A stretch of DNA of 64,000 nt from a virus (taxonomy: Duplodnaviria > Heunggongvirae > Uroviricota > Caudoviricetes), in IMG/VR virus record IMGVR_UViG_2630968933_000007, positions 32,001-96,000 of that record; one strand, given 5' to 3'. How positions within the stretch are numbered: position 1 is the stretch's first letter; every line of letters starts with the position of its first letter. Below are positions 21,001-24,000 of the stretch, piece by piece. The position numbers were made by a program.

Positions 21001-24000
21001 AACCCGTCGCGAAGTTGTTGAACGTCCGGTGCCTATGGCAATGATGGCGGATCGCTACTTCACCACCAAAAAGGACGGCAAAACTTACTACATTAAACTT
21101 CATGATCCGCGCCTGATGCGTGCGATGAAGAACATGGGGCCGGAAACCAGTAACGCCGTAATCCGTACGCTGGGGAAAGTTAACCGTTTCCTGGCAACGG
21201 TGAACACGTCGTATAACCCGGAATTTCTGGTCAGTAACTTCATCCGTGACGTGCAGACGGCGGTGATGAACCTGAAGGCGGAGCAGGGAAGGAGCGACGG
21301 TAAACTGAAAGGGCTGGATAACTTATCCGCCCTGGCTGTAGTCAAAGACAGCCGTTCTGCAATGTCAGCCGTGTACGCCAGTCTGCGTGGCAAAACCCTC
21401 ACGGGCAAAGGCGCACAGTGGCAGAAAGTGTGGAAAGAGTTTGTTGAGGACGGAGGTAAAACCGGCTGGTTTAACATGGGTGACCTTGAAGGCCAGAAGA
21501 AGGAAATGGATCGCCTTGTATCGCTGGCGAAGGGAGGATGGAAAGGCCAGAGTATCGGTGCATGGCATTCGTTCCTGAACCTGGTCGAGGATGCCAACGG
21601 CGCGGTTGAAAACGCTCTGCGTCTTTCTGCCTATAAACACGCCCGTGATGCCGGTTTGTCACGCCAGCAGGCGGCATCTCTTGCCAAAAACATGACGGTG
21701 AACTTTAACCGTCGTGGTGAGCAGGGAGCGCTGATGAACTCGCTGTATATGTTTGCCAACGCCAGCATTCAGGGGACCGCAAACCTGGTGAGAACGCTCG
21801 GACATCTTAATGGCGACGGGCCGTTACCGGAGCGCCTTCGCTGGAAGAATCTCAATGTACCGCAGAAAATCGCGCTTGCAGCTGTGGGAGCGGGTTATCT
21901 GCTTGGCTCGCTTAACCGCAGTGTTGCGGGGGAGGATGATGACGGGGTTAACTGGTACGACAAGGTGCCGTATCATGTGAAAGAGCGTAACCTCGTCATT
22001 ATGAAATCGATGTTCGGGGGCAGGGCCGGAGAGTACTGGAGTATTCCTCTGCCTTACGGGTACAACGTTTTCTTCCTGCTCGGGCATACCTCTGAAGGTG
22101 TGGCTGCTGGTGACCTGACGGCGTCCCGTGCTGCCGGTAATGTTGTCGGTGGTATCCTGGGGGCATTCAGCCCGATTGGCAGTGAGACGTCGGAAACGCT
22201 GTCCGGGGCATTGCTGAAAAATGCAGCACCGACAATTCTGCGTCCGTTTGCGAATCTTGCCATGAACGAAAACTTCATGGGGGCGCAGATTTACCAGGAG
22301 AACATGCCGTTTGGTACACCAAAACCTGACAGCCAGCTGGGAAGACGTTCAACGCCAGAAGCGTACAAGGCGTTTGCATCCTGGCTGAATGCGTTCTCAG
22401 GTGGCAGCCAGTATCGTCCCGGCGCGGTGGATATCACACCGGAATCGCTGAAATTCTGGATTGACTATATCTCCGGAGGGACAGGGCGCTTCATTTCCAA
22501 AACCACAGATGCGGCGGTGAAATCGCTGAACGGTATTGATATACCGGAGCAGCAGGTGCCCTTCCTGGGGAAAATTTCGGGTGAGGTGATGCCGTATGCA
22601 GACCAGCAGAAGATGTACGACCGGATGACAGAGGTTGCGCAGTATCACGCAGAGCTGAAGAGTCTGACCGGTGCAGAAAGAACGGCGTTCATTGACGAGA
22701 ACAACGGAAAATTGTTGATGAACGGGCTTATGCAGGATACCCGGAAGAGACTGAAGGATTTGCGCAAACAGCGCGATGCCATTTATGCCGACAGTTCTCT
22801 CAGTCTGGCGCAGCAGGCGGCGATGGTGAAATCGGTAGAGCGGGATATGAAGGTTGCCGTGGATCGCTTTAACCGCGAGTACAACAAAAAAGTGGGAGTG
22901 GATTAACAGAAATGGCCCCGTACGGAAGTGCGGGGCTGATTAAGAAATAAACACACATTAACCTGTAATAACCGGAGCTATTAACATATAGTCAGAAAGA
23001 GTATTTCATGTGAGACAGAGAGCCGATTTATGTTTAATGAAGAAAAAGTTGCGTAAATGGCAGCGTATTTGCTGAAAAAACATGGCGGATCTATGCGTTT
23101 CATTAAGCTGATGTATCTCTCTGACCGCAAAGCAATGGAGTTGTATGGTTTTCCCATTAGTGGTGATCATTATTTCTCTATGAACAAAGGACCCGTTTTA
23201 TCGCAGACATATTCTTTGGTTAAGGATGGAAGTGAAAACGAGTACAGTCCGTGGGAATCATGGATATCTGATGTAGCGGATCATAAGGTTGAAATGTGGC
23301 GTACATTTTCTTCTGTTGATGAGCTGGGGGAGTTATCGCCCGCAGAAATAGAGTCAATGGACATAATTTTTGGTCAATATGGAGGTTGGGATGCGTTCAG
23401 GCTTTGTGATGAAACTCACAGAATTTGCGGTGAGTGGCGCGATCCGCATGGTTCATCAATTCCAATCAGCCTTAAGGATATATTTATTGCTCTTGGAAAG
23501 TCGCCAGAAGCAGCAACAGTAATGGCGAATAGCATTTATGCGCAAAATAATCTTGATATATTATTAAGTGATCTGAGGTAGTCGGGATGATGTTCAGCCC
23601 TTATTTGTATTTACCGGGGAGGGAAGATGTTTAATTCCGATTCCCCGGCTCCACAGGCCTAACCTAACTTTATGTAACAGTCCATGCAGGGCTGAAATCT
23701 GCCTGCTGAAATAACTCCGTTAGCCCGCTAATCTGCTTTAACCTCAGAACTTCATCCTGGTCCATCCCCAGTTCTGTTCCGATACGTTCATCAGTCCAGC
23801 CAAGACGTGAAAGATCTCTGACAATATCAGACATTGAGGTTATCTGGTGTTTCCCCCTGGCTCTGTTATGTCGGATAGTCGCGGCAATACGTGAGGTTTG
23901 TCCCTTTCGGTCTGGATTAATACAGGTTACTGGTAGCCAGCCTTTCAGGCGTTTTCCAGTAACTGTTCTTCTACCTAGTAACTGCCTATGAAAACCATCC

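Follow-up and report, generated by a model that had tools for sequence, protein, structure and literature searches.

The stand-alone Panacea gene of a 933W-like prophage is very probably a decaying remnant of a PanA-PanT toxin-antitoxin cassette

The window, by which we mean the whole stretch of 64,000 nucleotides analysed, carries at 23057-23581 (+) an open reading frame of 174 codons, with its stop codon at 23579-23581. The product belongs to the Panacea proteins by its match to the Pfam model PF13274, SocA_Panacea (formerly DUF4065), with E=2.4e-19 and 70.7 bits against a curated cut-off of 25.7 bits, the alignment covering residues 16-127 of 174 and model positions 2-112 of 113. Leading into this frame, nucleotides 23030-23062 (+) are atg ttt aat gaa gaa aaa gtt gcg TAA ATG gca, that is, an upstream in-frame ATG at 23030, eight codons, a stop codon and the ATG at 23057. 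The upstream neighbour is a giant LPD5/LPD38 gene coding for 2788 aa that ends at 22906 and whose homologues contain LPD5, LPD1, MuF_C and LPD38 domains. On the other side lie, in convergent orientation, an IbrB-like gene with a ParB domain (23670-24314, -) and an IbrA-like PAPS-reductase/DUF3440 gene (24299-25525, -). The initial annotation had described this layout, the flanking genes and a hairpin between the Panacea gene and ibrB, and all of it was found accurate on re-reading, with the hairpin confirmed at 23614-23648.

Escherichia phage PhiR5_2 matches the region at 100% identity, and the first 232-262 bases of the region are common to about 70 Stx-converting/933W-like Sepvirinae phages. 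In E. coli chromosomes the prophage adjoins ynfF. At least 80% of the query region was covered in 18 of 5,426 complete E. coli genomes, with identities of 99.4-100%, and RefSeq has a Panacea-domain gene annotated in all 18. In the three of them that were retrieved (L003, L004 and L007) the annotated CDS starts at the ATG of MAAYLL.

Comparison with sister loci identified 23030-23056 (+) as the original start and first eight codons (MFNEEKVA) of the Panacea antitoxin gene, PanA, followed by the stop. The TAA at 23054-23056 corresponds to a CAA codon (Gln9) with a C-to-T transition, 23054 being the altered base. Reading base by base, the TAA allele was found in the window and in L003, L004, L007 and L023-L025, and the CAA allele in L001, L002, L006 and L017-L022. 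Phage 933W, Shigella phage 75/02 Stx and E. coli cM8a have near-identical surroundings and the CAA codon, giving MFNEEKVAQMAAYLLKK. Among the 41 loci that share the exact 5' sequence, codon 9 is CAA in 34 and TAA in 7. With the reconstructed protein as query, 220 homologues were retrieved from 5.8 billion protein clusters, most of them 184-186 aa long and with 99-100% query coverage. Alignment with these DUF4065 proteins showed that their N-termini extend through the MFNEEKVA segment, with a consensus MFxEEKVAQMAAYLL in which M10, A11, A12, L14 and L15 vary little or not at all. When one genome per species was considered, position 9 was Gln in 29 of 32 and His in the other three, with a stop in none, and position 10 was Met in 20 of 32. 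Two close homologues that seemed to begin at MAAYLL have mis-called starts, and in an E. coli P2-like prophage copy MFNEEKIAQ is encoded upstream of the called start. Kurata et al. (PNAS 2022; PMC8832971) had likewise restored the residues MIFSEQKVAQ on the Pseudomonas moraviensis PanA, having judged the NCBI version truncated in comparison with its homologues. Among intact members of the family, annotated starts frequently make the protein too short, which calls for correction.

The sequence comparison therefore strongly supports that the ancestral N-terminus was longer and that the TAA arose in it as a nonsense mutation, which was one of the two alternatives put forward in the initial annotation. 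The layout of a stop followed by an ATG is an accident of sequence, because the ATG at 23057 is the codon of the conserved Met10. What remains at 23057-23581 (+) is a PanA frame of 174 codons starting at this methionine and lacking residues 1-9.

A second lesion was found a short distance downstream. The family motif KLMKLLYLSDR reads KLM---YLSDR in the window, where a single AAGCTGATG unit (Lys-Leu-Met) is present at 23105-23113 (+), compared with two in tandem in the intact allele of L017-L022 and three in cM8a (L006). The 9-bp in-frame loss of one AAGCTGATG unit is the product of replication slippage. In an AlphaFold2 model of P0007, a full-length homologue (pLDDT 92.2, alignment of 39 sequences), residues 4-17 form helix alpha1 and residues 24-42 form alpha2, so that the nonsense codon removes alpha1 residues 4-9 and the slippage removes three residues of the core helix alpha2. 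The complete architecture of the family, with MFxEEKVAQM in alpha1 and an uninterrupted KLMKLLYLSDR in alpha2, is accordingly absent from the window PanA. Other window-type alleles are broken further by an internal deletion or frameshifts (P0002, P0003, P0016 and P0023). With regard to selection, comparison of the window with the intact allele gave a dN/dS of 0.25 (8 synonymous and 8 non-synonymous changes), which does not indicate relaxed selection, although much of this divergence may be older than the lesions. Four substitutions in the ORF separate the window from strain EC2 within the TAA lineage, none synonymous and all four non-synonymous, a count that is suggestive but too small for significance. 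Both counts are underpowered, and neither the ratio of 0.25 nor the 0:4 decides whether selection has been relaxed.

The gene had also been described as stand-alone and without a partner. It is true that no full-length partner is adjacent to it in the window, but a remnant of six codons had been overlooked, and PanA stands alone here because the toxin gene has been deleted. In several homologous loci PanA is followed by a gene of about 133 aa, with a 4-nt overlap or a gap of a few nucleotides. Six contigs (L017-L022) carry the E. coli member, P0152, in a prophage arrangement like that of the window, in the order giant gene, PanA (186 aa), toxin (133 aa), ibrB, ibrA, antA and ynfF. In these the PanA gene has the CAA codon and two KLM units, and the toxin begins 5 nt past the PanA stop, forming the bicistronic pair that is missing from the window. 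The intact P0152 begins MMFTPYRRGTILAP, and the window retains at 23587-23604 (+) the sequence ATG ATG TTC AGC CCT TAT, i.e. codons 1-6 of the cognate toxin (MMFSPY versus MMFTPY in the intact protein). Homology is limited to these six codons. The frame then enters unrelated sequence and the hairpin and stops at 23632-23634, forming a stub ORF of 15 codons that is preceded by a strong Shine-Dalgarno sequence (-6.9 kcal/mol) embedded in the end of PanA. In the collection with one genome per species, 37 loci encode a relative of the toxin, and a PanA homologue was found directly upstream on the same strand in all 35 that had enough upstream DNA, so the partner is a conserved neighbour of PanA. 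An intact cassette at a coverage of at least 80% was found in none of the 5,426 complete E. coli genomes.

For the partner protein, neither Pfam nor PADLOC gave a meaningful match. A sequence search of the PDB gave only chance matches with the toxin profile (E >= 0.09) and none with the PanA profile. A word-indexed search with the single toxin sequence retrieved four proteins, and a profile search of 1.84 billion representatives retrieved 2,169 clusters (E<=0.001), almost without exception about 130 aa long. The AlphaFold2 model of the toxin (40-sequence alignment) reached a pLDDT of 93.1, and the fold confidently predicted is that of MazF/Kid/CcdB. The conserved residues are His20, Asp27, His65, His70 and Ser72. 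The toxin has however only 6-15% sequence identity to the toxins of MazEF, Kis-Kid (PemIK) and CcdAB and no Pfam PemK match, and the antitoxin here is a Panacea domain protein in place of MazE, Kis or CcdA.

Kurata et al. (PNAS 2022; PMC8832971) described Panacea antitoxins (PanA) whose partner toxins (PanT) fall into dozens of families. Of these, PanT cluster T6 has the antitoxin-then-toxin order with distances of -4 or -1 nt, has no CDD match and is EndoA/PemK/MazF-like by HHpred, and the genomes listed for it include Pantoea septica LMG 5345, Salinivibrio socompensis S35 and the Yersiniaceae strain 2016Iso4 (PMC8832971). We found homologues of the toxin in the same three, Pantoea septica LMG 5345 (L054), Salinivibrio socompensis S35 (L066) and 2016-Iso4 (L056), so that the assignment to T6 rests on shared genomes with the antitoxin-toxin order, matched at the level of the genome. 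The T6 pair of P. moraviensis has been characterised: the toxin is toxic and inhibits protein synthesis, it is neutralised by PanA, and the two proteins form a complex (PMC8832971). The pair has several points in common with the family described here, i.e. the same PanA subfamily, with N-termini MIFSEQKVAQ and MFNEEKVAQ, the antitoxin-then-toxin order with an overlap or short spacer, and a toxin that has a MazF-like fold and, like the partner here, no domain-database match. Unlike the P. moraviensis pair, the window copy has no toxin and has two lesions in PanA. As the T6 genomes recur and the P. moraviensis T6 pair has been validated, the ancestral cassette is a member of a known and validated toxin-antitoxin family, and the toxin of the E. 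coli prophages would by homology have a similar activity.

The Panacea (DUF4065) domain is shared as well with SocAB of Caulobacter crescentus, the namesake of Pfam SocA_Panacea. In that system the adaptor that links the toxin SocB to ClpXP is SocA, and the target of SocB is the sliding clamp of DNA polymerase. The cassette described here differs in both toxin and mechanism, since we infer for it a MazF-fold toxin that is neutralised directly.

The 41 loci with the exact 5' sequence could be sorted by the state of both genes. Seven have the TAA, one KLM unit and the toxin stub (the window, L003, L004, L007, L023 and L024, together with L025, which runs off its contig). Six have CAA, a PanA of 186 aa and an intact toxin (L017-L022). 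In another 27 the codon is CAA, PanA is cut to 31, 60, 63, 66 or 91 codons, and the toxin is absent or reduced to a 62-aa remnant. The last one (L044) has CAA and is unclassifiable, with only 92 nt after the start. The toxin is therefore absent in all seven TAA alleles, and all six loci bearing the toxin have CAA; the lack of any TAA allele with a toxin fits the expectation that loss of the antitoxin only follows loss of the toxin. The deletion forms of the sister phages, leaving 31, 60/63/66 and 91 residual codons, are independent. In phage 933W (AF125520) the gene L0135 and the 31-codon ORF upstream of it represent the same locus and cassette, likewise degraded. 933W keeps the CAA and has large internal deletions in both genes, L0135 being codons 1-11 of the toxin fused to its C-terminal third, next to the 31-codon remnant of PanA. 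The window, unlike 933W, still has the body of PanA behind a nonsense codon, and almost all of its toxin is gone. This cargo hot spot of the prophages thus offers a natural series of independently decayed PanAT cassettes, in which the toxin is gone from every antitoxin-null allele seen, as the logic of toxin-antitoxin systems predicts. The annotation of the 933W "hypothetical protein" L0135 should be corrected to a toxin remnant.

Taken together, the locus is very probably what is left of a decaying cassette of the type II PanA-PanT toxin-antitoxin (or phage-defence) kind. It lies in the cargo region of a 933W-like (Sepvirinae) prophage, with the giant LPD5/LPD38 gene on one side and the leftward ibrBA/antA genes on the other, and its ancestral form was an operon made up of a stand-alone Panacea PanA of 186 aa, 5 nt, and a T6 toxin of 133 aa with the predicted MazF/Kid/CcdB fold. 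By homology with the P. moraviensis pair, the toxin would block protein synthesis and be neutralised by direct binding of PanA. In the window lineage the toxin gene was removed with six codons left behind, and the antitoxin, with nothing left to neutralise, would then have gained the Gln9 C-to-T nonsense mutation and the 9-bp slippage deletion in alpha2. The comparison with related loci and the structure model show the ancestral state, the lesions, the conserved partner and its predicted fold; the succession of these events, the loss of PanA function and the activity of the toxin, for which we draw on published work on a homologue, are probable. What is annotated in these prophages as a "Panacea domain-containing protein" of 174 aa is accordingly likely to be a pseudogene. 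The locus is a degraded copy of the known T6, MazF-fold family of PanA-PanT, and its history is one of ordinary decay with no new regulatory device. Its value as a discovery is small, as one nonsense mutation explains the TAA-ATG arrangement and one deletion explains the absent partner.

The 174-codon frame is, as a counterpoint to decay, still open in the 18 complete genomes and in more than 100 contigs. This could reflect either a young lesion or a retained function.

We consider it unlikely that the locus works as an orphan antitoxin, with termination at the UAA, reinitiation at the AUG and a PanA that still functions without residues 1-9. Once the prophage had shed its own toxin, such a protein might guard the lysogen as an anti-addiction factor against T6 PanT toxins of competing prophages or plasmids, or might serve as a Panacea sensor or decoy that stands alone. 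In the general biology of toxin-antitoxin systems, protective roles of orphan antitoxins are known; here, the frame is open in all the full-length copies seen, its stop and start codons are adjacent, and most of the Pfam domain is kept. On the other hand, the lost residues are among the best conserved of the family and part of helix alpha1, three more residues have gone from the core helix alpha2, the four substitutions within the lineage are all non-synonymous, and more truncated alleles are known. It also speaks against this reading that Kurata et al. put the ten corresponding N-terminal residues back on the P. moraviensis protein (PMC8832971). Furthermore, the anti-Shine-Dalgarno pairing of the ATG at 23057 is only -1.0 kcal/mol, among the weakest quarter of the ATGs in the window. 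The ATG at 23030 has a weak pairing of -2.9 kcal/mol. Since the ATG at 23057 is almost devoid of a Shine-Dalgarno sequence, any synthesis of the 174-aa product would have to proceed by termination-reinitiation at UAAAUG once the leader of eight codons has been read. Residual expression by this route is possible, being mechanistically feasible in bacteria, and any product would lack the conserved alpha1 residues and the three alpha2 residues.

An error of sequencing or assembly behind the TAA, or readthrough of it, with the full 183-aa protein as the real product, is very improbable. Nothing specific speaks for it, and UAA followed by A is not known to be an efficient readthrough context in E. 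coli. A sequencing error is ruled out because base-by-base reading showed the identical allele in six more full-length copies, three in independently assembled complete chromosomes (L003, L004 and L007) and three in IMG/VR contigs (L023-L025), where it always comes with the same 9-bp deletion and the same deletion of the toxin. As for the other alternative of the initial annotation, a programmed upstream ORF or leader peptide of eight codons coupling the translation of PanA, it has in its favour the local geometry only (ATG, eight codons, TAA, ATG) and is refuted as a designed feature by the comparative data, since the stop is absent from every homologue (0 of 32 at species level and 0 of the 34 CAA loci), the segment is part of the protein, and the window is one transition away from its ancestor.

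A scan of 22800-23800 detected no sigma-70-like promoter. The sole terminator-like call in the same scan was a weak 5-bp stem over the TAA-ATG, which we deem meaningless. A search of the literature on IbrA/IbrB in phages turned up nothing that bears on this locus. The hairpin at 23614-23648 lies 22 nt past the ibrB stop codon and has no U-tract, and the fold of the whole fragment is no better than that of shuffled sequences (z = -0.37). A related sequence, CCGGGAAGGGGAG...CCCCGG, is present in L002 and L017; it follows the toxin gene in the intact loci and marks the end-point of the deletion in phage 75/02 Stx. We take the hairpin for the junction with the ibrB/ibrA cassette, or possibly a terminator of ibrB, in either case separate from the history of PanA.

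In L017, a sister locus that retains both the PanA antitoxin gene and that of its cognate toxin PanT, a direct repeat some 150 nt long lies on each side of the PanAT cassette (L017:4195-4341 and L017:5542-5689; identities of 94% and 88%). Both reproduce the giant LPD gene's 3' end together with its hairpin. This bracketing of the cassette by direct repeats points to recombination as the route by which it was gained or lost; in the window the second copy of the repeat is absent. The giant gene itself (window 14540-22906, plus strand) codes for 2788 aa and has homologues carrying LPD5, LPD1, MuF_C and LPD38 domains, of the polyvalent-protein type. 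Its orthologue in strain G1/2 is annotated as frameshifted.

Phage 933W also contains a leftover of the cassette. Its L0135 (62 aa, L001:3150-3498, equivalent to AF125520 57568-57916), annotated as a hypothetical protein, is a chimera left over from the PanT toxin, in which codons 1-11 are joined to approximately residues 88-121, followed by an altered C-terminus. A 31-codon remnant of PanA, with CAA at codon 9, is found 5' of L0135.

Among the intact PanA genes of this subfamily public calls often begin late, at Met10 or Met22, with an in-frame MFNEEK(V/I)AQ encoded upstream of the called start, as in an E. coli P2-like prophage (L008:3974-4534) and in protein clusters P0004, P0010 and P0418. 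Because of these late calls, database lengths of 165, 174 or 177 aa cannot separate a mis-called start from a true nonsense allele. Within PanA helix alpha2, the Lys-Leu-Met unit AAGCTGATG is present once in the window (23105-23113), twice in the intact alleles (about 4510-4527 in L017) and three times in strain cM8a (L006, about 4225-4251), and this tract is a small coding-sequence repeat prone to slippage.

In the partner family, with a predicted MazF fold, His20, Cys25, Asp27, Cys58, His65, His70 and Ser72 are invariant or nearly so (alignment A3, numbered as in P0121). This set may not match the catalytic residues of canonical MazF, so PanT may use a chemistry other than that of classical MazF.

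The PanA remnant of the window is adjoined by an IbrB-like and IbrA-like pair (23670-25525, minus strand), the former with a ParB N-terminal domain and the latter with PAPS reductase and DUF3440 domains. IbrA gave weak PADLOC matches to BrxP (1.6e-7) and DndC (4.5e-5). The pair may form a cassette for DNA modification or defence within the cargo site that it shares with PanAT; in 933W this position is occupied instead by hokW/sokW together with other cargo. Further on, a second, partial copy of antA comes after an AntA/AntB antirepressor gene (window 25722-27400, minus strand; 6843-8535 in L003, a complete E. coli chromosome). A truncated 4Fe-4S protein pseudogene directly adjoins ynfF, indicating that the prophage end at antA borders a disrupted host gene.
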